A stretch of 63,935 bases of DNA, the filler included, from Hausera hauseri (lineage: Eukaryota): assembly GCA_046269625.1 (NCBI GenBank). It is 12 parts of 12 records of this genome, joined end to end, with 100 filler letters (N's around TTAATTAATTAA, not from the genome) between each part and the next. Parts side by side here need not be neighbours in the genome. Positions count along the whole stretch, not along the records: positions 17,672 to 22,814 come from JBJURY010323050.1; 11 more parts are not named here. One strand, 5' to 3'. Position numbers and translations under genes: made by a program. The notes under the pieces were generated by a model. That model was given only the letters and a program-made list of their open reading frames with translations, did no database searches and was not told the DNA's origin. Shown piece after piece: positions 1,715 to 57,559 of this stretch (position 1 is its first letter; the number at the start of each line of letters is the position of its first letter).

Positions 1715-1780
1715 CGAATAACCCAAAACAAAAATTCAATGTAGTTAAAACAAAAATCTTTATTACGCAACATTTGAAAA

Positions 1781-3700
1781 TCATTCAATCAGGTCTTTGA
1801 TTTTGTCAAATGATGCCCGTAATTCCGTGAAATACTCTTTCTTATACAAACCGCCCAATGCATGAATCATGCTAACTCTAAAGTTCTCATGGAAAAACTG
1901 AATGAAATTTGCATTTATCTGCAAATCAGTCTGTAATTGCTGGCATAAGAAATGTACTTCTTTGATACCGGATTTCAATGTTCTTAGCGTACGTCTAACG
2001 CACTTGATTGCTTGTGTTCTCTTGATATTCGTTCTGGATCGATTGGTATTCAACATTTCTTGAATGCACCGTATATTATATTCTATTTTCCTGCGAAATT
2101 CACGAAGAAAATATTTCAGTCTGCACGAAAACTCAGCGAATTGTGGTAAGTAATCAGGGAACAAATAATGCGCTACTTCGAGTTCACTAAAACTTTGAAA
2201 ATTCAGAGTTAAACGTGAAAATATATAGTATAATTCTCGAATTTTTGAAAACTCTTCACTTAATTCTTTGAAAGTATCATAAAGGACTTTGTGTGAAAAT
2301 GTTTCATCCGTTTGCACGATTTCTGTGATTTTGGAAAATTTTGGGTTAACAAAGTCCTTTAATTGGATCGTTAAATTTGAATACGAATCAACAATCGTAG
2401 AGATTTTTTCCAAAATAATTTTTTCTATTTCATTTCGGAATTCATCTGTACTGATTGCTGAAGAAATTTGTAGACCAGTTGAGTCATCATTTGTCAAACA
2501 TTCTTTGATTGGACAAATGTATAGTAACGTCTTATTAATGTTGCACTCGGTGCAAAGGAAATGAATTCCACATGATAATTTAGTGGTATAATCTACTCCA
2601 CGTTTACAAACTATACATTTTTGACAGTTACTCGAGTAAAACTCGTTATAGATTATTCTCAATTCTGGGTATGCTAAAATATATCGTAATTGCCCTTGTA
2701 GTCTCTTTTGTAACCGTTTCAATCTACCCAAGAGTTCACTGATTTCTACATTGTTATTCTCCTTGATATTACAGTTTTCACTCCTATATGTTCCTTCAAT
2801 AGAATCTTTTGCACTCACATAGTATACATAATCATCTTCCTCAATATCACTTTCACTTGAATACGATTCAACATCAGAATCAACAAATTGATTATATTTT
2901 TCTTCATCTATCTTGTAAGGACATTTTATGTACTCTTCAGTAAAATACAAATCATCGTCTGAATTCGACGTATCTTCTTCGTTTTTTAATATTTTCTCAA
3001 CATTGTGAGATTTTTGTTCCAATTTTTGAACAATCTCATTAGCATCACATTGACAATACCACAATGCATTAAATATGTCCCTTAATATACCAACTATATA
3101 ATCTAACCTTTTCATTTTCATTAACGTATCTCGGTCAGTTTCTTTGTCTATGCAGCATTCCGTGAAATTCCATAAGGCAAATTCAAAATTGGTATAAAAT
3201 TTTCTTGTTAAGATCCTAGCTCTATATTGAGTCGTTTCAGGAATCTCACATTTTATCTTTGATAATTCACGTATTGTGTTTTCCATGTCTTTGTTTATAT
3301 GCGTCACATCCATTGTGCTCTTAAATCCGTCAATAACAATGTGTTCTTTTATACTATCGAATTGTTGACTTAGTTTGTTCACAATTCTAATATATGGAAC
3401 TGTTTTCTCCATATTCCTCACAATGTAGGGTATCAATTTGGACATTATCTGAATTGACGATTCTATCACCAATCTATACAGAAACGTAGAAGGCGCGAGA
3501 GATTGTTCCTTTGATCCATCAGACAAATAAATGTCAACTGTATCAATTATTATCCTGTCTAGAGGACACGAAGAGTTCTCAGTTAAAATCGACGAAGTAC
3601 AATTGAAACAGAAAGCATGCCCACATTCAGGAAATTGTACGATTTTCCCTAACGATAACGATGAGTAGCAAATCTGACAGTCATCATTCGGATTTATCAT
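1781..3700 (-). CDS. Intronless 639-aa protein with two RING fingers (putative E3 ubiquitin ligase)
   Basis: N-terminal CQIC..CGHAFCFNC..CPLDR and internal CIVC..CGIHFLCTEC..CPIKEC, separated by an acidic linker; AATAAA (1759-1764, minus) just after the stop. Confidence 0.85.
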   Translation of the reverse strand: MINPNDDCQICYSSLSLGKIVQFPECGHAFCFNCTSSILTENSSCPLDRIIIDTVDIYLSDGSKEQSLAPSTFLYRLVIESSIQIMSKLIPYIVRNMEKTVPYIRIVNKLSQQFDSIKEHIVIDGFKSTMDVTHINKDMENTIRELSKIKCEIPETTQYRARILTRKFYTNFEFALWNFTECCIDKETDRDTLMKMKRLDYIVGILRDIFNALWYCQCDANEIVQKLEQKSHNVEKILKNEEDTSNSDDDLYFTEEYIKCPYKIDEEKYNQFVDSDVESYSSESDIEEDDYVYYVSAKDSIEGTYRSENCNIKENNNVEISELLGRLKRLQKRLQGQLRYILAYPELRIIYNEFYSSNCQKCIVCKRGVDYTTKLSCGIHFLCTECNINKTLLYICPIKECLTNDDSTGLQISSAISTDEFRNEIEKIILEKISTIVDSYSNLTIQLKDFVNPKFSKITEIVQTDETFSHKVLYDTFKELSEEFSKIRELYYIFSRLTLNFQSFSELEVAHYLFPDYLPQFAEFSCRLKYFLREFRRKIEYNIRCIQEMLNTNRSRTNIKRTQAIKCVRRTLRTLKSGIKEVHFLCQQLQTDLQINANFIQFFHENFRVSMIHALGGLYKKEYFTELRASFDKIKDLIE

Positions 3701-5067
3701 TTTTGATTTGAGTGTTTCTGTTCACCAATTATAAACAAACAAATAAAAAATAACAGCATTACGGTAGTTTTATGCGGAAATTTTATTAAAATCGATGAAA
3801 TGTTTACACGACAAATAAAATGCATCTTTATGCAAGATTGTAAAACATTAAAACGTAATAATACGACATGGGCTCAACACATTTCTATGTAATACGGTTC
3901 GTGCCGTTTATTGGCTGAATTGCAATGTTCAAGTTTTCTCGAATCAACAGAAATCTATTTTGAGTAGGTGACGTCATTATTGACATCATTTTTGATTAAA
4001 CTCATTTCCTAAAATTAAATACGAAATCTTGATGATATCATCTGCATGCAAAAATATTTTCATTTCTGGAAATTAGTGAATACAATAATAGTTCCTTTGT
4101 AAGGTTATCCAGAATGTACTTTTATCCAGTCTACTGACTCTTTACAATTTTGTCAGTAATATGTATTATTAATACGTATTAGACAAGACGTATTAGTCAT
4201 ATGACATACATCGGAACACATTGCAACTTGAACACTTTCATTTATCTAATTTTACAATTACATTAAACTTGCGTGTACACGTACATATGCTTCTGATTAT
4301 TCGATTTTGCTGAAAGTAACGTGCAAAAAACAACTCATACAATAAAGACACGGGCATTTATTCATGACATTAGTCAATTCATACTTGTTAATTAAGGTTG
4401 TGTTGTGTCTGACTGTGTCTGACATTAACTGCACTCTTGAAATCTAAATTTGGATCACCGGGTTTCATGTAGATATTTTCTCTGCCCTGTTTTGATACCA
4501 AATTTAGGTTCTCGCTTGATATAAATTCCGATGCTGATTTTGGTAAGAACACAATATTTTAACAACAATATTTTGACAACATTTTAACAACATTTTGAAG
4601 TTGATTTCATTTCAGTTTGAATTGAATTGAATATTTGAATTAATGCAATTGATATTTTGAGTAGTGAGTTTATATTTATTATTATTGAACCCAAATATAT
4701 TTTACTTATTTTCTGTTCGTTATTTGTTTATAATTAAAGTTTTGATCCTAGACTAACAGATAGTCTAAGGAAATTAATCATTTTCCGATTATTCTGCAAT
4801 CACTACTAATATTATAACATACAATTAAATTGATAAAGTTAATATCACAAATCTTATTCAAGTATTTTCCTTCTATAAACCTTAAGAAATACGCTGAATA
4901 CATTGCAATTACTTTTTCATATATTAAATTTTGTATTGAAGAAAGATTAGACTTCTATTTCTCCAGAGAAGCAATAAGACGTGAACAAATTAATCATTTA
5001 AACAAAAAGTGTAACCCTCACAAAGTTTTGTGAAAGCTATTAAGATAGCAAAACACAAAACAAGATT

Positions 5068-5080
5068 TAGCGCCCGAACA
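5068..5080 (+). promoter_or_regulatory. Probable tRNA-Lys primer binding site of an LTR retrotransposon
   Basis: TAGCGCCCGAACA vs canonical TGGCGCCCGAACA (1 mismatch), ~500 nt upstream of a gag-like start. Confidence 0.5.
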
Positions 5081-5578
5081 TAAATCTTTATGTTTCAGCG
5101 TATCTTGCGTTTTTTCAAAAACGATTTAAATCCTTCTGTTTTTTGTGCTAAAGGTAACGGTTCTCATATATATTTTTCTAATTACTCAGCTTTTACACCC
5201 TTTATTGATTCGTATTCGGACGCAGGCAGTGTTATTCTTATCAAAAAAGTTGTCATTATTGAGCGTAGTTCTACTCACGATTAAATTCTCACTAACTTTT
5301 TAAGGGTTGGAGAAAAGAGAGGAAAGAGTTAACAAATACACAAAGTAAACACTAAAATAATTTTTTTGCCAAGTTTAGATCTTTGACTCTGACAGTCAAG
5401 TGATCGTACAAAAAAATACTACATTTAAGTAATAATTAACAAAATCTACAAAGGGTTTACATACTTAGTAAAGTAACCAGAGCCAACCATTCATCGAAAT
5501 CTTAGAAGTAAAAGTTTAGTCAGACTTGACGATAAATTGCCTATAGTTCTTGTAGAAAAACTTGAAATTAATAAAAAT

Positions 5579-5732
5579 ATGGCTGAAAGAAATAAAGATG
5601 CCAATAATTTAAATGTGTATGATTTCCGAAACTTTAAAATTGATGTAGAAAAATTTAATGGACAACCAAATAAGTTGTCACCATTTTTAAAAGCATACAA
5701 ATCACAGAGCACTGCTCTAGAAGTAAGTGAAA
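5579..5732 (+). CDS. Gag-like N-terminus, truncated by contig end
   Basis: MAERNK...IDVEKFNGQPNKLSPFLKAY resembles the F.G.P..L..FL capsid motif; lies downstream of the PBS-like site. Confidence 0.5.
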
Positions 5733-5832
5733 NNNNNNNNNNNNNNNNNNNNNNNNNNNNNNNNNNNNNNNNNNNNTTAATTAATTAANNNNNNNNNNNN
5801 NNNNNNNNNNNNNNNNNNNNNNNNNNNNNNNN
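5733..5832. other. Artificial contig spacer
   Basis: 44 N + TTAATTAATTAA + 44 N. Confidence 0.98.
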
Positions 5833-8096
5833 ATTCATCAGATTTATAATTTTTGTTCTGCTGATGGTAAGGTTGCTCTTGAGAGATTAGTTAAGAATAT
5901 TATTATTTCAGATCTGGAGGAGAATTTCAGAGTTGAGAACGTAGAAGTAGGAGAGTTATAGTTCAGGAGAAATTTGCGTAGAAAATTTAAAGCACTGTTT
6001 GTCAGTTTGGTGTTATCGAAGTTGACGTTATAGTTGACTCGTGCGCTATGACCTTTGTAAAAGAAGTGTCTTAAGCCTCGGGCGGTGGGACCATATTGTT
6101 CGAATCGAGTGTCACGAGTTGAAAGGGCATTTTGAGGGGTCGGGTGAAAGGAAGACTATTCATAGGTTTTATTTTGTTCTGGTCCAGTGTAACGATCATG
6201 GTTGCAATGATGGCATGTGGGGTTGGTTGGTTAGATTCTTCATGTATTCGGTATGTTGATATACTTTTAGTGGGAATTGTTGTGGGTTTAGGTTGTAGTT
6301 ATGTAGTAGAAAATCCATATGGGGAGTGGGAGAGGGGAGGGAAGTACAAGACAGTTTTTCTAGGAATATTAATATTTTAGCTCTAGTGGTGAAGTGGATC
6401 GGTGTATAAGATGAAGTTGATTTGTATCTTCGTAGGAAATCGTCGAGGAAGGAAGTAGCTTGTGTTTTAAGCTTGTTACCTTTGAAGGTTACTGAGTGAC
6501 TGATATTGGGGTTCCGATTTTTGGCGAAAAAGATTTTCAGAGATCTTACAATAAGTATGAACTGTTCAAGGACTGGATTGTGGGTAGTAAGAGCATTTGG
6601 TAGAGGCCAAGTAAAATATGCAAGCTGAGTTTCTTCAATGTTAAGTTCCATTGCTTTGTTGTTGAGTTTAGAGGTGTGACGTTTTGTTGTGCTGTCGGAG
6701 ATATTTGGAATTGTAGGGTTTTCAGATAAAATTTCATAGACATTCATCCAGTTGTATAAATGGGTGAAGTTGGTAGGGTTCCGTTGAACAATGTATTCTT
6801 GAGTGGCTTTAAGGAAGTTAAATATAGTGTGTTGAGTGTCGAAGCGGAAGTTGAGGTTAGGTGCATCATTACTAAAGGAAGAAAGTTTCGCTTGAATTGT
6901 GAAGATAGGGGATGTAAATTTTTTCCAGAAGGTTGGTGGGAGTTGATTAGTGGAAAATGCTATGTAGTAGGTAGGTTTTTGAAGAGCAGTCTTTGGAGGT
7001 CGGCAAGGAGGATAGAAGCATAATGAGGTAATTTATGTGTTAAGTCGTAGAAGTATTCATTAATATAATCATCCATTATATAATTTGTTAGTTGTTTCTG
7101 TGCTGGGAGGTTTGAATCTTGGATAAGGGCATATGATTTCGGGAACGGCAATTGTTGTGCAGAAATTCCAGAGTCGATTGGATAAAGATGAGACTGCTTA
7201 GGATTTTAGAAGGCAGAAATCTTTGGTTGTAGAAATCATGAAGAGTTTGTATACATGGTTTGTGGCAGAATGTAGATACAAATCGTGCAACCTTATGTGT
7301 TGGAGTAATTGGCAGAGGGTCACACGCGAGTATAAAGAAGGCTTTTAGGATATGTATGTTGTCAATTGGGGCAGATTTGGTTGTTGAGTAAGTGGTAAGG
7401 GATGTTAGATGGCTAAGGATTTGGTTGTCATAGTGTGACAGTGTGGTCCCTTCGTCTTTGTTAAGGCTATCTAAGGGAAAGAGAATCCAATTGCAGTAGT
7501 TGTTTTTAAAGAAAAGAAGAAGGTCTGTTTCCATGCTTATAAGAATAGCGAGGTATTTTGGGGTTTTCAGACATCGGAAACGCAGAAGTGCTACTTTTAT
7601 GTAGTTTGCTGTTGTTGTTTGAAGTAGTAAGGTTAGAGGCAGGAGTGAATTTTATAAATTTTACTTTAGGAGTAGAGGCAAGAAGCACCTTATCTGCCCG
7701 GGTGTTAGCAGCCATGTCTGACCCATTATGAGCCACGGCGAGTGTTGCAGGATCAGTCTGAGCCGCCTTATCAGAAAGTTTAATTTGGGATGTTTGGGTT
7801 TGTTGGTGTCTCTTTTTGGGAGAAGTGGATGATGAAGTCGGTTTATAAGGTCTTCGGAGACTTTCCTTTGGTGGGATAGGAGGTGATTGTTGCAAAGTCT
7901 GTAGTCTATTGTTGTGGGGTGGTAGAGGGAGTAGGAGAGGTGGAGCAAAGTTTTGACATTGTGGGGGGAGTGGCCAGAAATAAGGAGGAGAAAGGAGACG
8001 CGCATCATACAGAGTGTAGCCAGGACTAGAGGGTACTAGAAGACATCCTCCGCCATAGAGTGGTCTATTCCCCACTTTCGGATTCGCATTTCCCAA
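5833..8096 (-). pseudogene. Decayed long ORF of unknown family, probably mobile-element derived
   Basis: Chain of same-strand ORF fragments (7506-8096, 7088-7534, 6960-7151, 6196-6747) with C/A strand bias; no motif recognised. Confidence 0.4.
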
Positions 8097-8117
8097 GCCT
8101 ATATTCCTAGCTACGGA

Positions 8118-8279
8118 TTTTATAAGAGCCAGCTCGGTCTCAAGACTGCCAGGAAAACAAAAATATTAAAATTGATCCAGCTCGAGCCGTTTACCCGGGC
8201 CACAGGAGAGAACTACTGTGGACCCCGAATCGCCAGGAAAATTAGGAACCAGCTCGAATTCATCGAATTCGCCAGGAAA
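8118..8279 (-). promoter_or_regulatory. Repeated-motif cluster with TATA-like box upstream of the decayed ORF
   Basis: CCAGCTCG at 8129, 8177, 8249; GCCAGGAAA at 8148, 8232, 8271; TATAAAA on minus at 8124-8118. Confidence 0.35.
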
Positions 8280-9364
8280 GGAAAAAATATTCTTACAATA
8301 ATAAAATTTACCATGCATTGTGGGCGAATTTAATCTAGCCACACAGTGCACGACATCCTGGTCATCATCATTCACTGTCTCCTTCTTCGAGGCGCTGCCA
8401 TCAATCCGCAGCATTTGCGAAGAACACCGACAGTCCGCATGAGCTATGTGCCATCCGAACGAGTCATCACCAGGAAGGTCATCTGACTGCATTTCTACCT
8501 TCACTGTGCCCTCCTGACTGACCCACCAGGATCGAGAACAGGTGCAGCATCAGTGCCACCGCCATTCTGAATGAAGGAATCGCAGTTTACAGTGGATAGG
8601 TCTCGATTCAGGTACCCTCTGGACTGGGCAGTAGAAACATGTGAAACCGAAGTTTCAACCATCTCAGGCTGATATCGGTTAAGTACGCGGCATTATTCAT
8701 CATTCCAGTATTATTCTCGACATCATCGTCGGCTAGCTCAGCAAGCAATACAACACTGTGCGACTGTGGAAACTGCTCATGTCCGGAGTATCCCTGAGGG
8801 AGACCTAAAATATAATAACAATAGCTCGAAAAAACAAAACAAACCGCACGGCCTAGCGGACTGTGCAAAACAGGAGCAACATCTGGATCGTAGGACTTTT
8901 GATTTGTAGACTCAGCCATAGAACATGTGAGGAGGAATTGAAACGGATATTATAGCTTAAATTTAATTCAAAGGTAATTCAGTAAACAGCCAACAGAAAG
9001 TCAAGAAATTTAAAAAAGAAGAAAAATAAGACTCATGTACGGAGTGAAGGAGATAAATGTTATATAAACTTTTATAATAAATATATTATGGATAAATTAA
9101 TCTTAAAATCACCAAGTGATGTTGATGTCTGGATGGTAGAGACGCGATCTACTCGCAATTCCGAAAAAGCATTACATGCATCCATAGTGAACACGGTTCA
9201 CATTTTGCATATAAAAAGTGTTTGGCGTTGTGTCAAAGTTACATTTCTATAAAATAAGTGTTTTGAAATACTTGTTTTTATATAAAAACAAAGGACTTGT
9301 ATAAAACATGTATTAATATAACAATAGCAACATTAGTACAACAGGAACAACATAAATACATCAA

Positions 9365-9640
9365 TTACGTAATTGTAACGTCACTATCTGTATCATCACT
9401 ATCTTCCCAAATGTCATCCACGTATCTTGTTATCCTCCCTATCAATGCATAGTAAAGCATCTAAATATTTCCATCCTGGACAACGACATAACCATATTTC
9501 GTCCTGCATATTTGACAATTCTTCTTGCGTCGTAGCCATGACCTGAGGCAGCTTACAAAAAATTTGTGGTTCTCACATGTCGCCAATCGAATATTCTTTC
9601 CACTTATCTCCTCCATGAAAATTCCACAGGTTTTGTCCAT
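9365..9640 (-). pseudogene. Small RING-finger gene downstream of pPolB, degenerate
   Basis: MDKTCGIF..CENHKFFVSCLRSWLRRKKNCQICR; one in-frame TAG (9461-9463), then an acidic tail WEDSDDTDSD. Confidence 0.7.
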
Positions 9641-9789
9641 ACTGATTTTAAAATAATAATAGAGTAACACAAATATTGGTTTTTAATTAAAATTTGAATT
9701 TGTCGATTTTCTCATATATTTTACATTACTGAAAACCCGAAACATTGATTCAAAACATTTACTAAACATGTACAAAACAATAACATCAT

Positions 9790-12363
9790 AAAAGCGAAAC
9801 ATGTCCATCACAATGCCATCACCTAATATATGCCTTTTGCCATCAAACCAATCCAGACTCCTTTTGCGCAGCGTTACAGTTGGGATTTCATGTTCGTGAG
9901 ATTGGATCCTTTTCCTCTCTGATATCATGTGTTTGATTCCAAAAAACTGTCACAGTTTGAAAAGATGACCTTTGTGGTTAATGCGGCTTTTTGCACTACT
10001 TTTGACCTCTTTTTCACTTTGCCACTAAAGTTGATCGCATATATTTTTGATCGAAGGGCCACGAATCGGGATATGATTTTCCAATTTACCTTATCTTTGA
10101 ACTTCCAGAGGACCTTCTTATTTGTTATAGAATAATTTCTGTGATCTTTCGGGTAATCTGATGTATCCATATGCTAAGCCAATTTTGCAAATTCAGCAAA
10201 TATGTCATGAGTATGCATCTTATATATGAAGGAATTAGTATCCATATGCATTGGCTGCAACTCCTTGAATGTTGGGACCATGATGTTGTAATGAAACTCA
10301 TACATCATGGTCTTCGATAGGTCCAATATTGACATGCCGACAAATTGGTTTTGTGAAATCCAAAGATGTTTTCATCATATGAATACTGACCAAATTTTGG
10401 CGGTTTATTGTGCTGCCCTGGAAGTTCGGCTTCGCTATAAGCTTTTTTGCTCTCTTCTAATCACACACTAACTCAGTATTTATCCGGTTCTGGATATTGT
10501 TTATGGTTTTGCCAAAAACACTGTTGCTGTACAACTTGAACTCATCTTTTTCCAAGTCGTATTGAGAATTGGCCCTCAACTGTGTGTTGACGTTAATATA
10601 TGGTTGCAGCCACATGGATTGACTGAACCGTAAGTCCCGATGGACCTTGGTGATTCGGAGTACATCTTTATAACCTCCTGCAGATTTATGTAATAAGCTA
10701 CATATCGTTCCGATTCTCCAAATGACACATAAACTTTTTGAATTTCCCATTCGGTGGCTTTTTTCTTCTTTCAGGAAGAAAAGAAGCTGTTCATGCCTTG
10801 TGTGGAATGAATGTTGATATTCCACATTCATTTCAAATATGTAGCCCGTTTCTCCATTGGGATCCAAATCTTGTATTGCAATGTCTTCAGAGTTATCGAC
10901 CAATTTAAAGTTGTCATACGGCAAAGGGATGCTCATTGCCTATTCATACAAGTTGTTAACATCCAAGTATGTTATATAAGTGTATGGCTTGAATGACATA
11001 TAATCGGCCATATGCATATTGTTGGCCTCACTATATCAGTGAATGACCTGGCAGATCCACCCAGAATGCCTTTTTCAATCATCAGGATCATATTTTAATC
11101 CTTCAAGATCTGGAGCCTAACTGTATTCATAGCGTAGCTGACCAACTCATTCCTGGAGCGGTGAAAAAATGAGCTGGATCCAACTTATGGCTATGAAACG
11201 TCACTTACCTGAAGCTCTCGAATAAATCTATTAGCAGCAACATGTCCGTTTTGAGATATATGTCACTATATTCTCCGATTGTTTTACATCGGAATGCATG
11301 TCAGACATTTTGTGCACGCTGATAATCAACACCACTAATATCCGTGTTTGACAGCTGACTATAAAAGTCTTTTTGGATGGTAATAATGTTTCATCCAGTG
11401 ACCCCATGATGTTATATAATCATAGGGGAAAACTCCTTTATTTTTAGCTAAGTCAAATGTAGCTGGAAGGAATATTTTAGTTTCCTTTAGTTCATCTGAT
11501 GGAAGATTCTTGACGAGGCTATTAAGTGATAAAACGAAACTGTTCATGAATCGGAGTCAAATTTTCCATACATGTTTTGTAAATGTGTCAAATTTCTCTG
11601 CACTATTTTGGATCATATCAATATTCCTCTTGATGTTTCCACGTTCTCTGACTATGAAGTGGGAATCATAGCTACTCAGATTGTGGAAGATTACTGGCAC
11701 AAATATAACAGTTCTGCAGAATAAATTGCATAAATTGCATGCTGCGCCTCTATACTTTTCTGTTACATGGCAATAATCACGCACCTTGTGGTTGTCCACT
11801 GTGAATGGTTTTCCACCCATGTATCATGTTGTTTCACTTCTCCATTCTAATTGTTCTTTTGGTGAAGTCGAAAGGTCGCATGTTTTAAATACAATGTGCC
11901 AAATCTTCCAAGCGATGCATAAAATGAAGTACTTCATCTTGACCTCTGAATAAATATGGCTCTTTGTCCATTTCCTTCGCATACATACAAAATGATGAAA
12001 CTTCATGATGTTGGTATGCTGTCCTATTACTTTGTTGCAGATTTGGGTTGTAACTCTGAACTGGACAAAGGATAGCTTTAAAGTCGCAATATACTTTAAT
12101 TGGCACTTTATGCATTTTCTTATACTCGTTGAATTCAATGTAATCTTCTTTGGGGAATTCTGTTCTAATCCAATGATTGCTGTTACAATACATTTTGTGT
12201 TCTTTCAGCTTCTCCACAGCTAAATCGCCACTGAAATTGGATAAGCAACGCTTTTAGATCTCAATTCTGGTCTTGTGTTTTGTTACTTGGGATCTTACCA
12301 GACGTTCAAAGTTCTTGATCAAAATGAAATGCCTCTTTTCACCATCATATAACAGGAGTAGAT
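9790..12363 (-). pseudogene. Polinton/adintovirus-type protein-primed DNA polymerase B, decayed
   Basis: EndoVII-like DYCHVTEKYRGAACNLCN, KGVFPYDY, YLDVNNLY, KLYSNSVFGKT, MDTNS, GKR C-terminus; many stops and frameshifts. Confidence 0.92.
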
Positions 12364-12463
12364 NNNNNNNNNNNNNNNNNNNNNNNNNNNNNNNNNNNNN
12401 NNNNNNNTTAATTAATTAANNNNNNNNNNNNNNNNNNNNNNNNNNNNNNNNNNNNNNNNNNNN
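12364..12463. other. Artificial contig spacer
   Basis: 44 N + TTAATTAATTAA + 44 N. Confidence 0.98.
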
Positions 12464-12534
<71 letters not shown>

Positions 12535-12540
12535 GAGAGA
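12464..12540. repeat. (AG)n microsatellite
   Basis: Near-perfect AG dinucleotide run at contig start. Confidence 0.97.
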
Positions 12541-13768
12541 CATGTGGGCTAAGTCGAGAAGTGTGATTGTCATTATACATGTATTATGTATCTATAATTT
12601 GAAGTATTCTGATTACCTAAGGAGTGATCTTTTGACTATATGCCTTATGTTGTTATATAGAAATAATATACTTTCGAATACGTTTTCATCAAATAAACTA
12701 TTGACTATGTGAAATCAGCATGCAGGTAGACATTATTTTGTTAAATATAAACAATATACTAACGTAAGTTGTGTGTACATCTCTTTTAGGAGTAAAGCAA
12801 GAAGTATAGAAGGATAATAACGAATTCACAATTTGAGAGTTCAAATATGAAGATATCATTTGCAAAGAAAATTACTTTGAAGTCTAATCAAGTATGCTAC
12901 TAAAGCCACCAAACAGTTGTACAAGGATATTATGCATTCTATAAGAGCAAAGCATGAAGTCTTAAAGATAATTTACTAGGAATAACCCATAGAAATAGGG
13001 AGTTCATAAAGGGTAAATACAATTTACGAAGAATAACTTTGGAACGCATTACACCAAAATGATTAAAAGGTTAAATTTTAATAATCATTGGAGGCGAAAC
13101 GTGTATCTTCATAGGTTATTGAGAATACTGCTATAGATAATTAAATAATACAAGAATTGGAGTATCTAAAAAGGATCGGTGCGTACCAGTAATTTCTTTA
13201 GGATACGGGAATTATGGATCGATGGAACATAAATAAGTTAGTTGGAATATGGATTCAGGTAGACAAGATCGTTGATTCACGAAGAGGAAAATATTTCAAG
13301 TAATCGATGATGATGCAGTGGTTATTAATGGTGGATAAATTAAACTTTGGGATTTTAGGATTAAGCTATAAATTCTAATTTTTTACATAATAAACATAAG
13401 TGTTCCGACAGTATTATATTAGAATATATGATAAAGATCGAGGAGACAAGAAACCTGTATCAACATATATCCATACTATGGAAGTGGCTGTCAATTAATC
13501 TTAATTGGGTATTAAAATCCCCTTACGCATATTCTTATTGAGATAGAACAACTAAACAAATAAAACTGAGTGAGAAAGAGAAAGAGGATATGAGCAAAAC
13601 TCAAGGAAGTTTAGAATTCACTTACATAAAATTCTTATACCTAATTGACATCTGGTGCAGGCTATTCTTAGCCCGACCACCATCGACCTCGCCTTCGGAT
13701 GTCTTGAAAATATATTTATATGTAGGTACGAATTAAGGTTCGAGGTGACCCCTGTACCATCAACACTA

Positions 13769-15221: not shown

Positions 15222-16430
15222 TTAAAGCTGATTCAAATTCAACATACCAAAATTGAACTTCGGAACATCGGTCAATTTCAAACCATATTCAGATCTCAGA
15301 GTCTGAAACAAATACTCTGAACACCCCTCGTTGAGATTTAACATGGGAAACAACAGAACCCCATTGAAATCGGAAAATTTCTCTTTCAAATGCGTCAATT
15401 GCGAATCATCAAACCATTTCCCAACGTCCGCTTACGACCAATTTCTCACCGCTATTTGACTAAGATTTTGCTGCGGCGGTGGAAATCTCTCCGCCACAAC
15501 GTTAATCGCCGGTAATTGCGTTTCCGTATCACCACCTGCAGTGAACTTCAACGCATGTATAAGCACCGAAAACGATTCGTTGAAATTCAGTCGTTCGGTA
15601 AAACTCGAAATATAATTTACTGCCCATGATGATACTCAGCCATCCGCTGGCTCTATATCGCGTTTCTACAATAAACGGAATGATGGTTTTTTTGTTATTT
15701 TTTTCCAACGAGAACGCATATTCTACTTCCGTATGGCAATTTGGACTCGTTCGGTACGCTTCGGAAACAGCTATAAGAAAAACGTCAGAATTTTCAATTC
15801 CGTCTGTCATCGCTTCCAACATTGATCCTTTCATTTGGTCAACGTCAATCCAGACTTTCAACCCGATTTTCTTTTCTATTTCTTCTTTCAACTTCGTAAC
15901 GATCGATTTATTCGTCAATGAATAACTAAGAAACACGTCAAATTCAAAAGTTCACTCTTTAAGGCTTTCTTACGGTTTTTTGCAGCGCTCTTTACACATT
16001 CAACGGAATGCGATTTACTATCAACGAGTCAAATTATACCTTCGTAACTTTTCCGTATCGATGATAATTTGTGGTTCTTAAGCGGACTAATCGCCGTTTT
16101 CAAATTATAGTCGGTCAACAACGATTGTCGAATTTCTCGATCAAAGCGCAAATTCCAAATTGTCGCCAATGCTTTATCGATATCTTCATCGCATATCGGA
16201 TTAGCAATAATGTCCATAAGCAATTGCAGTCCGCCTTCATCTCGAATCGATTTTTTTCATGTTATTTGCTGAGATCATTTTCAATTCCTTTACCAATTCC
16301 CAAACGGCGAATCCATCGATACGATGCTATTATTCGGTTCGTGCAACGTTTGTCTTGGAAATGAGTAGCTTAATAGAGTTTTTCCCTTCTTCGAGCAAAC
16401 GTAACTCGTCTTCGTTTGCCGAACAATTGA
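15222..16430 (-). pseudogene. ARM-repeat - TIR - SAM-like innate immune adaptor pseudogene
   Basis: ARM-like GFAVWELVKELKMISAN and DKALATIWNLRFD; TIR FDVFLSYS..GLKVWIDVDQMKGSMLEAM..SPNCHTEVEYA; SAM-like VRNWS*ADVGKWF..FSDFNG; stops and frameshifts, no introns evident. Confidence 0.8.
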
Positions 16431-17671: not shown

Positions 17672-17681
17672 TCCTCTCTCT
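17672..17681 (-). promoter_or_regulatory. Candidate polypurine tract
   Basis: AGAGAGAGGA on the element strand, where the contig breaks (expected if a repeated LTR follows). Confidence 0.45.
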
Positions 17682-18605
17682 GTAATAACTGACATACAAA
17701 GTGGGTTTTCCCACTACCACTAGGTCCAACTATCTGGAATACTGCATTGTTATTAATCTCCATTATTAATTACATGTGTGTATATCAATTTTGTTTATAA
17801 CAAGTAAGCATGTTAAAAACATTTATTAACGCACAACACGTGATAAAAATATAACAAGTACCCCTGTAAGAATACTACATATTAGTGTTATATATTGGGG
17901 TGGTCCTTATGCAACGCCCACTATATAACAATGATTACACTTGAAATTTTAAGTATTCTACTACAGGTATGGTCTATCGTTATCGTATAGACAGAATGTG
18001 TCTTACAACTATATTTAATTTGAAATGCTGGTACTCGCTTGCAGTCCTGTGCAAAAAATGGTTTTCAAAATTCTCTCTCCTTATCTAGATTTTAAGTATC
18101 AATTTCAATATCCTAGGGAAGTCCAATTACCCTTATGGGGCAATGAAAAACTATATAGAAGAATTTACAACAATGATACAACAAATTTAATAAATAACAA
18201 TTACCAACATTATTAATCACGTAACCAATTATCGTCTATAGAATTGAAGGTAATTTTTTTGGTCAATCTCGATAGCAACTTTCAGTCGAATTTTCGTTTC
18301 GGTCTTTTACCCTTCAGTCTTTCTCAGTCTCCTTCGTCTATTTTGCTTTCCTATTTATATCGAACATTCTCTGATTATATCTTTTTTTGTCAATTTGACT
18401 TGGGTTTTATTTCAATATTTACACATTTAATCTAATTGCTATCCATTCTCTTCAATTTCAAAAGTAAATAAATCATTTCTGGTGTTCATTGACTTCAAAA
18501 AAAATAAATATTTACAAATTTCCTAATGCTTCAATATATATCAACTAGATTTATCGACATGTTCCTATTGACAGTTTAGTGATAGCGATCATCTCCTACA
18601 TAGCA

Positions 18606-19260
18606 TTACGACATTTCTCCTCCCTGAACGGCATCCTCGGAGGTGCCTATTGCGTCAGAAGAGGTGCCGTCTCTTGGTGGTCTTAACAGATTTAATCGTC
18701 TTCGTAGACTAGTATCTGGGGCTGTAGGTCTCTGGTCAGGTCGAACTTCTAAATCGTAACTATATTGAGGTTTTATGCAAACCACTCCTGTATATTCTCC
18801 ATTCGAGAAATACTTCAAATTGGCTGTCTTAGCCCGACACACCGGACAAGTAGTCTTACCATTTTCTAGAGTCCACTCTTCTATACATTCCCGACAATAT
18901 TTATGTCTGCAATCCTTATTGTTCAGGCTTACAAACCCTTGTTGAAGGTTAGCTTCGCAGACTGGACACTCGTTTTCTTCTTTTTCCCATTTCTCATCGT
19001 CCAGATTCAGTCGAATCGTAAGTTCGATTTGCTCGGAAACTAGCCCTTCTTTTCTTTGATATAAATATCCATGAATTCGTTTCTGTTTGAGGTCCACAGA
19101 ACTCTTTCTGGGGTCACAACTTATAGTGACTAAGGTCCAATCGGCTATCATTTCTTGGTCTAAGTCAGGAATTTTATTAGCTGCCTGGTATTTCTGATAT
19201 TTCTTCTTTAGTAAGACCTTTAGTTGTTTGTCCACTGGTACAGTTAATTTTCCGTTTCAT
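18606..19260 (-). CDS. Element-borne C3HC4 RING finger protein
   Basis: CPVC-x15-CRHKYCREC-x12-CPVC. ORF track starts at GTG 19235; a more likely ATG at 19260 (MKRKINC..GLTKEEISEIP) needs one frameshift near 19185. Confidence 0.8.
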
Positions 19261-19262
19261 TT

Positions 19263-19964
19263 TTATTGGAAAATCGGAGCGACATATTTTCCTAAATTGT
19301 GATTTTCCCATATATAAGCATTTTCATACACCTCTCTTTTTGGGGTAACTGCTATGTAAAATGCTGTCCTTTTTATTTTTCCGTGACTATAGTGTTCAGT
19401 CATTATGAGCATTTTTGGTAGATCTTCTGTAGTGGCAAAATGTTGGTTCCCAGGAAATTTTCTGTTCCTAAGAACATTCACTTCTATATATGATTTTGCT
19501 TCCTCCATTTTTTGCCTTTGTTCTGAATTTGAGGCTCCTTCTGGGTCTTGTTCGGTTCTAGACCGTTGTAAGAATTTCTCACTTCTTTGTATTATTCTGT
19601 TCTTTGTTTCAGCGTTACGTGTCCTTTTAAATATTTTATTGTATAATGAGGTTCTACTTTTGTTATCTTCTATCTTCAGTTTCTTCTTTGGAACTTGAGG
19701 AATTTTGAATATTGAATCTTCGTTCTTGTGTCTATCCATCGGTGGTATGAGGGTCCCTTGACTTGTATTAGGTAGTTGAGCATCATTAAATTCTAAAAAT
19801 TCTCTAATTTTAGATGGTTGATACAGTTTCCGGTATTTGTCATTTAATTCATTTGGATTCGCACAACTGATTAAATTATATTCAGGTTTCGGAGGAACCC
19901 ATTCGTGTTCCCATGTTAGCGCAGTATAAGTACGTATTGGGTACGTTGGCTCGCCGTTAACAAT
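19263..19964 (-). CDS. Accessory ORF, basic, with NLS-like PKKKLKI
   Basis: 158-aa ORF from ATG 19739; frame stays open upstream to 19964 (IVNGEPTYPIRTYTALTWEHEW...). Confidence 0.6.
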   Translation of the reverse strand: MVNGEPTYPIRTYTALTWEHEWVPPKPEYNLISCANPNELNDKYRKLYQPSKIREFLEFNDAQLPNTSQGTLIPPMDRHKNEDSIFKIPQVPKKKLKIEDNKSRTSLYNKIFKRTRNAETKNRIIQRSEKFLQRSRTEQDPEGASNSEQRQKMEEAKSYIEVNVLRNRKFPGNQHFATTEDLPKMLIMTEHYSHGKIKRTAFYIAVTPKREVYENAYIWENHNLGKYVAPIFQ

Positions 19965-20071
19965 TTACTGATTTTAACGCGGCTATTAGTGGCGGCTTTA
20001 ACCATTATTTTAAAATAGGCGTTTATAATTTTTGGCATTGGGTAGTTTCTTGCTCTTAATAAATTTTTTGT

Positions 20072-20647
20072 TCATTCTATAATAAGACAGTGAGTGTTCA
20101 GTTGACTTATTCCTGCTACTCCTGAGTAGGGAATGTCTAATAATGATATAATTTCTTCTACTCGGTATCCAACGAGGATACATCCATACAAACAGTAAGT
20201 TAATTCATTTTGCACAACTTTGACATTTTTTTCTTTTAGATTTTCTTTGCGAATTCCGGTCTGATCGTAGAAGGTTTCTCTAATTTGTTTTCTTGGGCTA
20301 ATAATCGCATGGCAAGACTCTATTCCATTTGTTTCTCTTATGGAAACTTCCATTGGGATCTTATCTACTTTATTTCCTTCGCCGAAGTTTATGGCAATCA
20401 TTTTCGTATTGTTAGCATTGGACACTACTCGATAGGAATATGAGAATTTCTCCATTTCTGATTCCAGAGGTCTGCATCGAAATTTCATAGGTGGTAATGG
20501 AATATTACTTTGTTCATCTTTGGTTACCTCAATCATTATTTTGACGGGAAGGGCGGTCACCCAAAATTCCAAGTATTGATCTTGTAAGTTTTTGCTTTGC
20601 AATTTTAACGTACTAAATCTGTATTGTTTCCACTTCCCGTGTTCCAT
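20072..20647 (-). CDS. Accessory ORF of unknown function (191 aa)
   Basis: ATG ORF overlapping the upstream ORF by 43 nt; may be its frameshifted continuation. Confidence 0.6.
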   Translation of the reverse strand: MEHGKWKQYRFSTLKLQSKNLQDQYLEFWVTALPVKIMIEVTKDEQSNIPLPPMKFRCRPLESEMEKFSYSYRVVSNANNTKMIAINFGEGNKVDKIPMEVSIRETNGIESCHAIISPRKQIRETFYDQTGIRKENLKEKNVKVVQNELTYCLYGCILVGYRVEEIISLLDIPYSGVAGISQLNTHCLIIE

Positions 20648-21009
20648 TCTTGCACATGTAATCGGTGATAAATTTCGCCATCAGCTAGATGTATGTACAA
20701 GTCCTGGCCTAATTCGTTTTCCATTAACTTCCGAAGTGAATATGTTTTAACGTTTTTATCTTCTCTCATCGCATACAAATATACAACTCTAACTTCCTCG
20801 GTAGTTTCTTTTAAGTTGTTTGGTATAGTGTGGACTCGATCGGATTTTATAGCCGCCTTCCCATGTAATTCGTTGTGTATCTCCCGGTAAATGGAATTGG
20901 ATCTTATGATAAGCATAGTAGCATATCTCTGTAAGAATTCGTCGATGCTACGTCGGCAGGCTTGAGGTTTTTCTTTTTCTTGTTCGTCGATCCTACGTCG
21001 TCCGGACAT
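20605..21009 (-). CDS. Accessory ORF of unknown function (134 aa)
   Basis: ATG 16 nt downstream of a splice-acceptor-like site. Confidence 0.6.
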   Translation of the reverse strand: MSGRRRIDEQEKEKPQACRRSIDEFLQRYATMLIIRSNSIYREIHNELHGKAAIKSDRVHTIPNNLKETTEEVRVVYLYAMREDKNVKTYSLRKLMENELGQDLYIHLADGEIYHRLHVQEWNTGSGNNTDLVR

Positions 21010-21025
21010 CTTCTGAGTATTAACT

Positions 21026-21052
21026 CTGAAATATAAACAATAGGGGTTATTC
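21026..21052 (-). promoter_or_regulatory. Candidate 3' splice site for a subgenomic accessory mRNA
   Basis: GAATAACCCCTATTGTTTATATTTCAG|AG: branch-like TAAC, pyrimidine tract, TTTCAG. Confidence 0.55.
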
Positions 21053-21164
21053 TTAAAATGTAGAATTGTTTTAGAACAAAACCAATTCTTCGCCCAATGA
21101 CAGAATAACCCGTTCTGTAATTGTCAGGTTATTTTATCATATACATCGCTTTGGTATCCCACCC

Positions 21165-22500
21165 TTAATTCTCAATCTTTATTTTTGCGCTGTTTTTTAC
21201 AGTTTTGGTAATTATATAAAATAACGCTATTAATATTACTAAGACGAACGCTGACACTCCAATAATTGAATAAATAGGTAGCGTTGTTAGTTCAATTGGT
21301 TTCTGTGTCGTTATATATGCGGTACTTGTATTTTCTACGTCTCGATTTTTCTGTGAATTTGGGTAAATATTTTCTATTAAGGTGCGTAAGGTAATTGTTA
21401 GATTCTGTTTTTCTGCTGCATTAATTTGTACTATGTGTTCTGTCTGAGAATTTAGTGAATTACATTCTGTCTGTCGTGTATTCCTTATAAGTATTACTTT
21501 TTGTCTATCATATAAGGTTCGACAATTTATTTCTATGTCGTAGTTTAATCTTTCCTCGACAAAGAAAATTATCTTATTTTGCTGCAGTAAATATTTGATA
21601 GGAATACCTTCCGGTTGCCTTCCGGATCTTGTACTCGTCATGACGATCTTAGTAGCGGTACTAGTCGTTGTCGTCGTTCTGGTTTGAGTCTTCCAATTTT
21701 GACCCTTTAAACAATACCTTCTTAGCTATATGCTTGGCTGGTTCTGCTTAACATTATATAGGTTGAACTGTATCTCGCAACTGTACCTTTGGGGTATTTT
21801 ACAACACGGTTTTGGGTTCCATCGGCTAATAGCGCAATATCTTGCTGGCGAACTTGTTTTAAATGGTATAAATCGAACCGAGTTCTGATAGAATTCCGTT
21901 AAACTTGTTCTAGTTCTAATTTGAATACATGCATTTTCCCGATCTTTAGAGACTTCAACTCTATTTTCATCTAACAGCTTAATTTGAGGGTCGGTACTTT
22001 GGACTACATCAGAAAATTTTATGCTACCAGCTAAGGCTTGTTTTGGCATAGTTATTTCCACCAATGGTCGTATATCTGCTCGAATGATCTCATAGGGGTA
22101 ATAATACATGCGTATTACATATCCACATATTCGTTCGAAGTCCAGTTCGCAGCATTTCCTGTAGATTTCATATCCAAACTCGCAATCCTTAATCTTTTCA
22201 CTATTTTGATTAGTGAACTTTTTACGAATTTTCATATATTCTGTGGTAGTCTTCTCGGTTTGGAACCAAATACAGGGTTTCTTCCAATCTACGTCATACG
22301 CTTTCATTGTTTTTAGATTTCCCACATTCTTTTGTCCTTCCAGGTGTTTCTGTTCCTCTCTGATTTTAGCTTCCTTTCCACTTTTGCTAATTCCATATAT
22401 ATCTGTTAAACTAGATACACTATCATTCCACCATTGCGCTTTAGTTTTGGGAATATAAGAGGCGATTAGTGATAATGCTAAGATTATCTGTACGTAAGAT
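21165..22500 (-). CDS. Env-position type I membrane glycoprotein with one internal TAG
   Basis: Signal-like YVQIILALSLIASYIPKTKA/QWW, two Cys modules, TAG at 21726-21728, then in-frame Thr-rich linker, NLT/NTS sequons, TM helix IYSIIGVSAFVLVILIALFYII and short basic tail. ORFs 21726-22565 and 21165-21641 share a frame. Confidence 0.8.
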
Positions 22501-22814
22501 ATTGGTCTACTAATTATAGAAGATGTCTTGGTTTTCTTTTTGTCTTGGTTTTGGTTGGATCGCAAATTGTAAAGTTTTTCTGGTCTTATTTCTGTCTTAA
22601 AAACTCTCTGTATGGATACTACCTCTTCCTTGCCATTTTTATTTATGTAAACAGTGGTCGGTGTGGTTCGAATAATTTCGTAAGGCCCTCGTCCGGTACG
22701 AGTAAGTTTTAATGACGCACCCTTTTTTGCGACTGGGTAATATACATAGACCCAGTTCCATTTCTATAAATCGTGTGACTTGGCCTTGTCATATTGTTTT
22801 TTAAACTGTTCTTG
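22501..22814 (-). pseudogene. Gypsy integrase C-terminal GPY module
   Basis: QEQFKKQYDKAKSHDL*KWNWVYVYYPVAKKGASLKLTRTGRGPYEIIRTTPTTVYINKNGKEEVVSIQRVFK..LYNLRS, in frame with the glycoprotein. Confidence 0.85.
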
Positions 22815-33092: not shown

Positions 33093-33093
33093 G

Positions 33094-36000
33094 TTACCTA
33101 CATTTAATGGAGATTTGAGAAATTGGATTAGATTTTGGGGTCAGTTTGAGAAAGTTGATAAAGACCATAATTTAGATCTACATGATAAGTTTGCATATCT
33201 ATCTCAATGTATGGAAAAGGGAAGTGTTGCCGAAGAATTAATTAGAAGTTTTCCACCGGGGGGAAACAGTTATGATAAAGCTATAGAACAACTGAAATCA
33301 CGTTTTGGTAGAGAAGAGTTACTTATACAAGTGTATGTCAGGGATCTTTTAACATTAGTTCTACAAAGGCAGAGTATGCCGAGAAAATCTTTGAGGAATC
33401 TTTATGATTCATTAGAAACGAAACTCCGTGCACTTGAGATATTGGGAGTAACTAGGGATAAGTATGCATCGATGCTTTTCCCGCTTGTTGAGTCTGCTTT
33501 ACCTGAGGAAACACTTATAGCTTGGGAACGACATAGATCTGCAGGTCGTAGATCCCAAGATGAAGTAGATCAAATTGTAAATAAAACTACTACAAAAAAT
33601 GATCTCGATTTAATTCTTGATTTTCTTCAAGATGAAGTACAGGCAGAGGAACGTATAAATTTAGCGTCACAGAACTTTAGAGTTGAAACCAAACCCAATT
33701 TTAAGTTGTTCAAAGAAAAAAAGGCTGAAAATAATAAAAACAAATATGGAGCCACTCGTCAAATAGCTAGTGCAGCTGATCTTTTAACCTCTTCGAAAGA
33801 GCAGAGAAAGTGTATATTTTGCCATAATTCGCATAGTTCTACTGACTGTTTGAAGGTGCGGAAAATGGCAATGAAAGAGAGAGAAAACCTAGTAGAGAAA
33901 TCAGGATGCTGTTTTTTGTGTTTAAAACCAGGCCATCAAGTACGCAAATGTTATTCAAAGGTAACTTGTTTGAGTTGTGGAAAGAGACATCATATTTTAC
34001 TCTGTCATAACATAAAGCAGCTAACATTTATCCCTACCGAAAAAGGAACTACAGAATTAGATAATGTTCCAAAGGAGGATCAGACACTTGCGAATATATC
34101 AAAAAGCCCTAGTGTTATGTTACTAACATTAACAGTTTTGATAAGAGGCGATGGAAGAAAACGAAAAGCACGAGCCATAATAGACACTGCTTCACAGCGC
34201 TCTTACATTTTAAAAAATACAGCCAAAGAGATGAAATATAAAAGTGAAAGCTGTGAATATCTTCAACATTCTCTGTTCGGTGGAGAGAAAACACGAGTGT
34301 GTAAACATGACGTGTTCACTTTATATTTGACGAGTTGTGATGGATCTTATAACTGTAATTTCAAAGTACTGAGCCAACCTGTTATCTGTGAAAGCATTCC
34401 ATCAACAACACCTACAGTTTATTTAAAAGAGCTTACTGACTGTGGTATACGTGTGAGCGATGATTATAAAGGTCCTATTGAAATTTTAATAGGAGCCGAC
34501 GTAGCAGGAAAAATCATCACAGGTGGTTACAAGTCCTTACCGTCTGGTTTAACAGCAATGGAAACGCGTTTAGGGTGGACCGTGATGGGTCGTACACAAC
34601 AAATTTCTTCAGAGGAAAATGAAATATCAGTAGCTAATTCTATGCTTTCTACTGCTAGGACAATAACAGAATTGTGGACTCTTGACTCGCTTGGCATTAC
34701 TGATCCATCTGAGAAGAAATCTAAAGAAGAACTTCATGAATCCGCCAGAGAGCATTTTGTTAACACAGTTCAAGTAGACAATGACAATCGTTTTGTGGTG
34801 CATTTACCTTGGCTTGAAGATCACCCCCCACTGCCTGATAATTTTAATTTGGCTATGAAGAGGCTGGACAGTACTGTACTAAAGTTGAAAAAGGAAAATT
34901 TGTATGCCGATTATAATCAAGTATTTAACGAATGGGAAAAGGAAGGGATAATTGAAGAAGTTCCTCAACATGAGATTCAATTACCGTCCCATTATTTACC
35001 ACATAGACATGTTGTGAAAGAAAATAGCACGACGAGAATCAGACCTGTCTTTGATGCCTCCGCAAAGCAGAGAGCTTTTCCAAGTTTGAACGACTGCCTG
35101 GAAAAAGGGGTTAATCTTGTTGAGTTAATTCCTACTATATTAGTTCGATTTCGGTTGAACAAATTTGGAGTTACGGCGGATATCCGTCAGGCATTTTTAC
35201 AAATTCGCCTACACGAAAGGCATAAAGACTATTTGAGATTCCTTTGGTATAAAGAGAACAATGAGCTGAAATATTTTAGACACTGTCGTGTCGTGTTTGG
35301 GATTTGTAGTAGTCCTTTCTTACTTAACTCTGCGATCCAGTACCATTTAGAAGCGATTTTGGCGGAAGCACAAGGTGGGAGCTCAAAATATCCGGTGGAT
35401 ATAGTTCAGAATCTTAAGAACAGTTTTTATGTTGATAATTGCTTAACTAGTGTAAAAACTGAAACCGAATTGCATGATTTCATTCGAGCAGCCACAGATA
35501 TTATGTTAGAAAGGAAGTTTGACCTTAGAGGGTGGGAGCACAATTATTCATCAAGAGAAGAGCCTTCGTCTGTAGAAAATAAAATTGTTCCAGTATTAGG
35601 TCTACAATGGGTTTTAAATTCAGATACTCTTTCTGTAAACTTAAAAGAAATTTGCAAAGATGATGGACCTATTACTAAAAGAAAAATACTTTCAGAAGTC
35701 CACAAAATTTTTGATCCCATTGGATATACTTGCCCAGTTACTTTAGGCCCTAAACTAATGCTACAAGAATTATGGAAAATGAAGACAACATGGGACTCTG
35801 AGTTACCACCAGCAATTTCTAAAAAATTTGAAAATTGGAGAAAACAGATTAATCTACTTAAGGAAATTGCAATCCCTAGATGTTTATTAGGAGACCCTGA
35901 CAATGCCTACAATTTAAGTCTACATGTTTTTTGCGACGCGAGTAAACTAGCTTATGCTACCTGCATATATTTAAGAAATGAAAGCAAAAACATAACTTCA

Positions 36001-56135: not shown

Positions 56136-56525
56136 GAATGCTTCCTAATATAAATAGTGCAGCCAATAGGAAGCCAATATGATGTAGTTAGAAATCACTC
56201 ATGCCCACCCACAACATGCATATACTGCACAGCAGCATTATTCTAATTCTCTTCCAGACATGTATGACGTACATATTCAATACTGGATCACAAAATTTTC
56301 AACTAGATTGTTTTTGATTAGTTTTTTGGGTTTGGAGCATTATTGATTTCTATTGATTTCTATATGTATTTATACATCAACTTGTATCATCTATGCTACA
56401 ATATTTTTTAATTTTTACTTTTTTGGAACAATATTGCGGCACTACGTGTCAAGCTCAATGAATATAATAATAAAATTCACTGTATGTTAAAATGATTTAT
56501 GATAAATTAATTTACCTTTCTTTAG

Positions 56526-56917
56526 GTCCATACACTAACGAAGAATTTCGCAGAAAGTTATCGCAGATAGTTGAAGACGCTGAAGTGAAAAAAACAATTG
56601 GCGACATTTACGACGATGAATCAGAATTAAGCGATGAAGAAAAGTTCTTTCTGTTTTCAGTTGAAAGAGGGGATAATCCAACAGTTGAGTATTTTGTCAA
56701 TAATATCAACCTGAAAGTTTTCAATACAAATTGTGTTGATGCTCTTGGACGAAACGCCATCCATATTGCCATTGAAAATGACCATATCGAAATGTTAGAA
56801 ATTTTATTAAAAAATAATTTTGAAATTGGCGATGGATTGTTACATGCCATAGCTGAACAGAATGTAGCAGGAGTTCAGATGATTTTAAATGAGTTAGAAA
56901 GACGACCAAGGAAAAAT
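56526..56917 (+). CDS. TRPC-family cation channel, ankyrin-repeat exon (3' boundary uncertain)
   Basis: Acceptor TTTCTTTAG at 56525; LSDEEKFFLFSVERGD..NTNCVDALGRNAIHIAIENDHIEMLEILL..GDGLLHAI. Confidence 0.85.
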
Positions 56918-56961
56918 GAATTACTTCTATTTTAAATGATAAAAATTATTAATTGTTTTAG

Positions 56962-57288: not shown

Positions 57289-57559
57289 GTATTTGGAATT
57301 TTGTCTAAATAGTTACAAACTAATTGATAGGGTTTGTTTGGCACTGTTGCACATACAGTGTATCCCATTAATTAATTATACATAATCAATAAAACTTCAT
57401 TTGGTGTATTTATTAACGACAAACCAGTGCAAACGACTCGAGTCGTACTATTGGATCTAAGTAATATGCCAAAGAAAAGACGCGATTAATTTGACATAAA
57501 TAAATAATTGGAGTGTTTTACAAACACCGAAAATACAACTGTGAAGTGTTCAATACTGA

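Follow-up and report, generated by a model that had tools for sequence, protein, structure and literature searches.

The planarian LTR element Burro1 encodes B-IAP, a protein in which a RING finger is joined to a BIR domain and which is anti-apoptotic, protecting planarian stem cells (PMC13465017), and ubiquitin-related motifs are listed in Burro elements (PMC6431247). As far as the available parts of these sources go, the giant planarian gypsy Burro1/GYPSM1 resembles the locus described here in being a gypsy-type LTR element with a RING, other ubiquitin-related domains and env homology. The Burro RING, however, comes with a BIR, and the extra motifs lie mostly within a polyprotein of ~4,900 residues, whereas the gene described here, which we call ORF4, is a separate ORF of ~800 residues behind an env-like gene. 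In the parts of the literature available to us, B-IAP is the one LTR-element RING for which we found a functional test, and it acts on apoptosis, not on silencing.

Exonuclease domains of the DEDD family have also been described in such elements. In bdelloid rotifers, the LTR elements Juno and Vesta have an ORF3 with a DEDDy domain (Rodriguez et al. 2017, PMC5408684) and so, like our locus, encode a DEDD-family exonuclease domain in an additional ORF at the 3' end. According to the accessible text of that paper, the rotifer ORF3 is RNase D-like, keeps its catalytic residues (DEED) and replaces env, whereas ORF4 has a DEDDh-like domain of the DnaQ/PolC type without the acids, joined to a RING and located behind an env-like ORF; the words 'ring' and 'ubiquitin' have no occurrence in the main text that was available. 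Errantiviruses, which carry env genes of the F or gB type (Chary and Hayashi 2026, PMC13524379), match our contig in having a gypsy integrase followed by an ORF with signal peptide and transmembrane segment, and 'ring', 'ubiquitin' and 'accessory' are likewise absent from the available main text. RING and DEDD nuclease therefore each already have a precedent in LTR elements (Burro1 and the rotifer elements, respectively, in the portions of those papers we could consult), and in the openly available articles that we searched we found no retroelement in which an exonuclease is fused to a RING.

A RING and a catalytically dead DEDDh fold do occur in one chain in human PML-1, where the pseudo-exonuclease (PXL) binds RNA and ssDNA (PMC13659232, available in part). 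The likeness is an analogy only: PML-1 is described there as a vertebrate host defence protein with an N-terminal RING, B-boxes, a coiled coil and a SAM-like part, whereas the RING of ORF4 is C-terminal, no B-box is matched, and no homology to PML-1 was seen outside generic folds. Among viruses, herpesvirus ICP0 exemplifies RING ligases through which restriction factors of the host are degraded, and poxvirus p28 combines a nucleic-acid-binding domain with a C-terminal RING. Both resemble ORF4 as C3HC4 RINGs that are encoded by a mobile element and accompanied by a separate targeting domain, but they belong to large DNA viruses and their targeting domains are unrelated to those of ORF4.

The window, that is, the whole stretch of DNA analysed here, comprises 63,935 nucleotides of the Hausera hauseri assembly GCA_046269625.1 and consists of 12 contigs, each of 4.0-6.5 kb, with N-spacers between them. 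The genuine context of the RING is consequently 17672-22814 alone, and the features of this contig are collected in Table 1. Gypsy-, BEL- and polymerase-B-like frames can be read by eye on the window's other contigs, where we also noted a TIR-domain frame amid transposon fragments (15532-15951, minus strand; Pfam TIR_2, E 2.5e-21) and a BEL/Pao-like gag-pol frame of ~1650 codons that runs, by eye, without interruption (33093-38037, plus strand). The gypsy-, BEL- and polymerase-B-like frames and the TIR domain suggest that the genome is an animal's. At 56474-57312 (plus strand), two frames that by eye resemble the N-terminus of a TRP channel lie a few dozen bases apart, and the gap between them may be a very short intron.

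Table 1. Features of the contig that carries the RING, in window coordinates; identities are to the intact relative P0001.
Feature	Position	Strand	Basis or remark
Gypsy-type integrase C-terminal tail with GPY motif, cut off at contig end	22520-22814	minus	profile score
Env-like ORF, ~450 aa, in frame with integrase tail	21165-22520	minus	hydropathy, motif counts
Extra ORF (ORF4), ~800 codons, broken	18606-21009	minus	tblastn of P0001, three collinear pieces
N-terminal domain of ORF4, no Pfam match	20417-20946	minus	76/177 identical to P0001 58-240
DEDDh/DnaQ-like exonuclease domain, likely inactive	19931-20416	minus	two-row profile vs PDB sequences; 65/160 identical
Poorly conserved basic linker with NLS-like clusters (by eye), limits approximate	19500-19820	minus	21/102 identical
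Conserved pre-RING domain	18990-19499	minus	71/161 identical; contains both in-frame stops ahead of the RING
C3HC4 RING finger	18837-18968	minus	Pfam; 31/44 identical, 8/8 zinc ligands kept
Short 3' segment common to many related contigs, holds polypurine tract	18611-18666	minus	encodes last ~20 ORF4 residues
Candidate 3' LTR, ~730 bp	17886-18613	minus	tract, TG and loose contig ends; far end perhaps 17865
Very high-copy repeat, distinct from the LTR element and adjoining it	17672-17881	minus	summed depth >400,000 in first bin

The RING is carried by a stop-to-stop frame (18606-19256, minus strand) whose own stop codon is 18606-18608. A protein search over 1.84 billion representatives with this frame gave 367 matches at E ≤0.001, of which only one reached E ≤1e-10. 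This match, P0001, is an intact protein of 870 residues encoded on a single ENA contig of 16,242 bases, and is 54% identical to residues 3-215 of the RING frame; among the best 150 of the 367 matches, all the others match around the RING only. When P0001 was searched against the window by tblastn, its residues 58-166, 165-404 and 408-869 aligned in collinear order (combined E 5e-139) from 20946 to 18612, with 322 of 762 aligned residues identical (42%). Because P0001 aligns collinearly across this interval, the four frames that follow the env-like gene belong to a single ORF of ~800 codons, and the RING is the C-terminal domain of a single multidomain protein of ~800 residues. P0001 ends in the peptide VQGGEM, as does the window copy, which suggests that P0001 likewise reads through the polypurine tract.

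The window copy changes frame near 20630 and again near 19930 and has in-frame stops at 20072-20074, 19263-19265 and 19257-19259, the latter two sitting directly ahead of the frame described in the first-pass annotation. With two frame changes and three stops, it cannot make the full-length protein and is dead. Word-based searches for further relatives recovered only P0001 itself when P0001 was the query (6851 candidates, proteins of at least 478 residues) and none for the RING frame (64 candidates); a search of metagenome contigs with the RING part gave no match (0 of 598), nor did the viral contigs searched. The pre-RING domain had no usable match in an Atlas search, the predicted structure of the pre-RING and RING part is a low-confidence model (pLDDT 31.9), and the linker carries a net charge of +8 in P0001. 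Upstream of the gene, a pyrimidine-rich stretch ending in CAG is visible by eye at 21029 (minus strand), ~20 bases before the ATG at 21009, and looks like a possible splice acceptor for ORF4.

The RING has the spacing C-x2-C-x15-C-x-H-x2-C-x2-C-x12-C-x2-C and scores 33.4 bits against the Pfam family zf-C3HC4 (PF00097; cut-off 21, E 4e-8), which P0001 also matches above its cut-off. In RINGs, the Trp of the helix, the Pro of loop 2 and the Arg that follows it are the residues that contact the E2, and in both the window copy and P0001 the helix Trp, the CPVC Pro and the next Arg are present. The complete C3HC4 RING with E2-contact Trp and Pro that had been read from the sequence at the outset is thus borne out, with all eight ligands in place. 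By its sequence it is a member of the C3HC4 class, and quite probably an E2-recruiting ubiquitin ligase. An equine herpesvirus RING matches it at E 7.5e-4, a likeness at the generic level only.

For the second region of ORF4, single-sequence Pfam scans gave no match and NCBIfam gave DnaQ matches that were weak and below the cut-off. A profile of two rows (the window copy and P0001), compared with PDB sequences, listed six: PolC exonuclease (E 6.4e-6), DnaQ (E 2.4e-5), ISG20L2 (E 0.053), SDN1 (E 0.33) and two unrelated ones. In the Atlas the leads were RNase_T, the arenavirus nucleoprotein and DEDDh clusters (top score 0.89, to be read as a lead only), and all of the ten best family matches belonged to one clan. 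Judged from these profile matches, the region is a homologue of the DEDDh-type exonucleases. A metagenome scan with the same profile confirmed one of 190 candidates, an intact RNase_T-family protein on the contig L001, and a profile comparison between its exonuclease and the ORF4 domain was weak (probability 24%, E 8e-4, 50 columns). L001 itself holds, at 1752-13681, this intact DEDDh exonuclease among a protein of 2672 residues, a rhodopsin-like membrane protein and a ribonucleotide-reductase-like gene, and by eye looks like a giant-virus contig.

The ExoI and ExoII acids are missing from both copies. At ExoI, on a strand that one of three MAFFT modes aligned, the D-x-E is replaced by AINTG or AINFG, with no acid in either register. 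The ExoII Asp is absent as well: the GYNIHFDI of DnaQ corresponds to GYNVQYML in P0001 and GYRVEEII in the window copy, in an alignment run ungapped from the GY anchor where MAFFT had put a gap. For the H-x4-D of ExoIII, P0001 has the His aligned without the Asp and the window copy changes frame at that point, so that the placement is unreliable. Because the ExoI and ExoII acids are lacking in both copies, the domain is likely inactive rather than a catalytic member of the DEDDh group. A Glu directly behind the ExoI strand is kept in both copies, through which some metal may be bound. Structure prediction for P0001 gave a low-confidence model (pLDDT 31), and a fold search with that model, which found no chain at Z ≥5 among 48,161, is uninformative. 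We consider it probable that the domain is a non-cutting binder of nucleic acid.

We next consider where this ORF lies. The integrase tail that opens the contig has no match in Pfam or NCBIfam and contains an in-frame stop at 22764-22766, but against a profile of five gypsy integrase tails from other elements of the window it scores 14.7 bits, where the best of 2000 shuffles reaches 9.8. No stop separates it from the env-like ORF, which itself has one in-frame stop (21726-21728). The latter has an N-terminal hydrophobic stretch and a C-terminal membrane anchor, with hydropathy peaks at residues 2 and 419, together with 13 Cys, three sequons and a Thr-rich stretch; no furin site of the form R-x-K/R-R was found, nor any Pfam or NCBIfam family or significant PDB match. 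Set against the errantiviruses, it matches neither the F nor the gB type by sequence, and it may be an undescribed type of envelope or surface protein.

At the other end, the RING frame is the last frame before a purine tract of 12 bases (18614-18625), which is followed by TG, and its stop codon falls in the first bases of the candidate LTR. Contigs of run X1, which may be the window's own sample and so is not independent, share the short 3' segment, where the summed depth is very high; 65 of them depart from it at 18611 and 47 at 18666. That 65 contigs diverge at the junction of tract and TG is what would be expected if an LTR family has a conserved 3' end. The far end of the LTR was placed by a TG..CA at 17886, beside position 17881 where 65 contigs of the neighbouring repeat continue differently, and the terminal inverted match is weak (5/10 at 17886, 6/10 at 17865). 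The LTR call thus rests on one end, on a contig that starts in the integrase tail and is without 5' LTR, gag and reverse transcriptase. The hairpin that precedes the purine tract is unremarkable (z -0.79). Taken together, the position of the RING at the 3' end of a gypsy-like LTR element is supported. The first-pass annotation had called the RING the last ORF of such an element: it is indeed the last frame before the purine tract, but it is the C-terminal domain of the ~800-codon ORF and not an ORF by itself.

Two further observations concern this end of the contig. One contig jumps from 18674 back to 17881, and may represent a miniature element composed of an LTR end, a short spacer and the tract. 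The adjoining high-copy repeat contains, at 17674-17763, the start of a P-loop ATPase-like ORF whose matches to P-loop families, Pox_A32 among them, are weak and all below cut-off; the repeat is possibly a Polinton-like element that served as the target into which the LTR element inserted.

The comparison with P0001 also allowed us to ask how the family has evolved. The RING is identical at 31 of 44 positions (70%) and the linker at 21 of 102 (21%; Fisher p 1.5e-8), and the RING likewise exceeds the rest of the protein in identity to P0001 (p 1.2e-4). Conservation of the RING so far above that of the linker implies past selection. A neutral path to 42% identity, under a simple K80 model without indels, would be expected to produce 25-28 stops in 799 codons; three are seen in the window copy and none in P0001, although the zero is partly selected by the search, P0001 having been recovered as an open frame. 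The window copy and P0001 could not have diverged so far neutrally. Neutral evolution, which the first-pass annotation had set against its own proposal, therefore does not describe the family's past, in which the RING was conserved over the linker and stops stayed far below the neutral expectation: as read from these alignments, there was past selection on the ORF4 family, RING included, and the window copy has decayed since. Two other counts were not used as evidence, namely the 20 variant places in the RING frame (nine at third, seven at first and four at second codon positions, a small and tool-chosen sample) and the share of conservative changes (154/440, slightly over the neutral 28-30%).

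The reading we favour, tentatively and at somewhat less than even confidence, is that ORF4 is a broken extra gene whose product was a nucleic-acid-binding ubiquitin ligase directed against host silencing. The counter-defence factor of the first-pass annotation, with host silencing or restriction proteins as its targets, thus stays our leading interpretation. The dead nuclease domain would grip RNA or ssDNA, whether in the element's transcript, in its cDNA or in small-RNA complexes, the basic linker would carry the protein to the nucleus, and the RING, by drawing in a host E2, would tag host defence proteins in its vicinity for degradation. Two analogies count towards it: in PML-1, so far as the available description goes, a RING is joined to a dead DEDDh domain that binds RNA and ssDNA, and host restriction factors are degraded by RING ligases of viruses, ICP0 among them. 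ORF4 would work much as a viral RING ligase equipped with a module for binding nucleic acid does; it is not a B-IAP. A narrower version, in which small-RNA silencing complexes or element RNA serve as the docking site of the dead nuclease domain and the RING there destroys PIWI/Argonaute or chromatin silencers, is conceivable, and we regard it as doubtful.

Another way to view ORF4 is as a protein that serves the element's own cycle, binding genomic RNA or cDNA while its RING ubiquitinates or scaffolds Gag, integrase or the particle during export, uncoating or budding. The same architecture and the same evidence of selection are consistent with this, as is the place of ORF4 behind the env-like ORF; the Atlas leads include the DEDDh-bearing nucleoprotein of arenaviruses, whose Z protein is a RING with a structural role and no ligase function. 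To our knowledge, however, most gypsy elements replicate without such a gene, and the kept E2-contact residues fit catalysis better than pure scaffolding, and we hold this role to be unlikely, though it stands ahead of the other rival readings.

A ligase that steers host cell survival or the cell cycle as B-IAP of Burro1 does, keeping the stem or germ cells that carry the element alive, would have its precedent in the LTR elements of planarians (PMC13465017, PMC6431247, both available in part). The domains of ORF4 argue against it: Pfam scans of P0001 and of the window pieces revealed no BIR, MATH or BCL2 domain, and the partner to which the RING is fused is nuclease-like. We therefore consider a survival function improbable. 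Less probable still, and by a clear step, is that ORF4 is passive cargo, a captured host sequence drifting neutrally. The five breaks in the window copy would fit such a history, but no cellular protein among the best 150 of the 367 matches extends beyond the RING, conservation tracks the domains, stops are far rarer than on the neutral path, and P0001 ends in the same tract-encoded peptide.

The nucleic-acid-binding ligase that we favour differs in its gene model from the one first proposed, which was a small RING gene with its own ATG, read through one corrected frameshift and without the exonuclease-like domain. The ATG 2 nt past the upstream stop and the peptide GLTKEEISEIP are both present in the sequence, but the frame they open closes after 27 codons, and against P0001 it scores 25, which 326 of 500 shuffles equal. 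The RING frame, from the same bases, scores 44, equalled by 5 of 500, and is the continuation of the upstream ORF's frame across two in-frame stops. On this shuffle test we rejected the ATG frame as a gene model. Nor does GLTKEEISEIP stand as a cellular pre-RING motif, since it belongs to the non-conserved frame; it lies ~70 residues ahead of the RING, and the cellular motif sits nearer its RING than that. Translation of the RING as a short protein of its own, starting either at the ATG at 19260 and then changing frame or at the in-frame ATG at 19151, whose frame stays open for 181 codons, is hardly credible, as the 19260 frame is unlike P0001, the Met at 19151 is not kept there, conservation passes straight through both stops, and a diverged sister copy (two contigs) has another letter within the first of them.

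A comparison of this RING with those at 1781-3721 and 9464-9640 had also been suggested, and we rejected a link between them: the two lie on other contigs and, at 16/60 and 9/26 identical residues, share generic RING similarity only, while ~45 RING residues carry too little signal for a tree. The first belongs to an intron-free frame of 646 codons (1784-3721, minus strand), unrelated to ORF4; its N-terminal RING (Pfam E 2e-8) is accompanied by an acidic middle part, another Cys cluster at about residues 366-405 and long helical regions, and inverted repeats (858-974/1604-1720) flank the frame on one side. The second is a 59-codon frame (9464-9640, minus strand) whose RING is degenerate, two of the zinc ligands being absent; its contig carries other unassigned frames as well.

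As we read the field, protein counter-defences against silencing by piRNAs and chromatin are considered scarce among animal retrotransposons. A ligase encoded by an element together with a nucleic-acid-binding module is a direct candidate for such a counter-defence, and one for which a natural intact protein, P0001, exists. If the narrower version is true, ORF4 would be a self-contained counter-defence enzyme of the Vif or ICP0 kind in an invertebrate, retrovirus-like LTR family, and the mirror image of the host's PML-1. The substrates of such a ligase would identify which host factors keep LTR elements in check in this animal.
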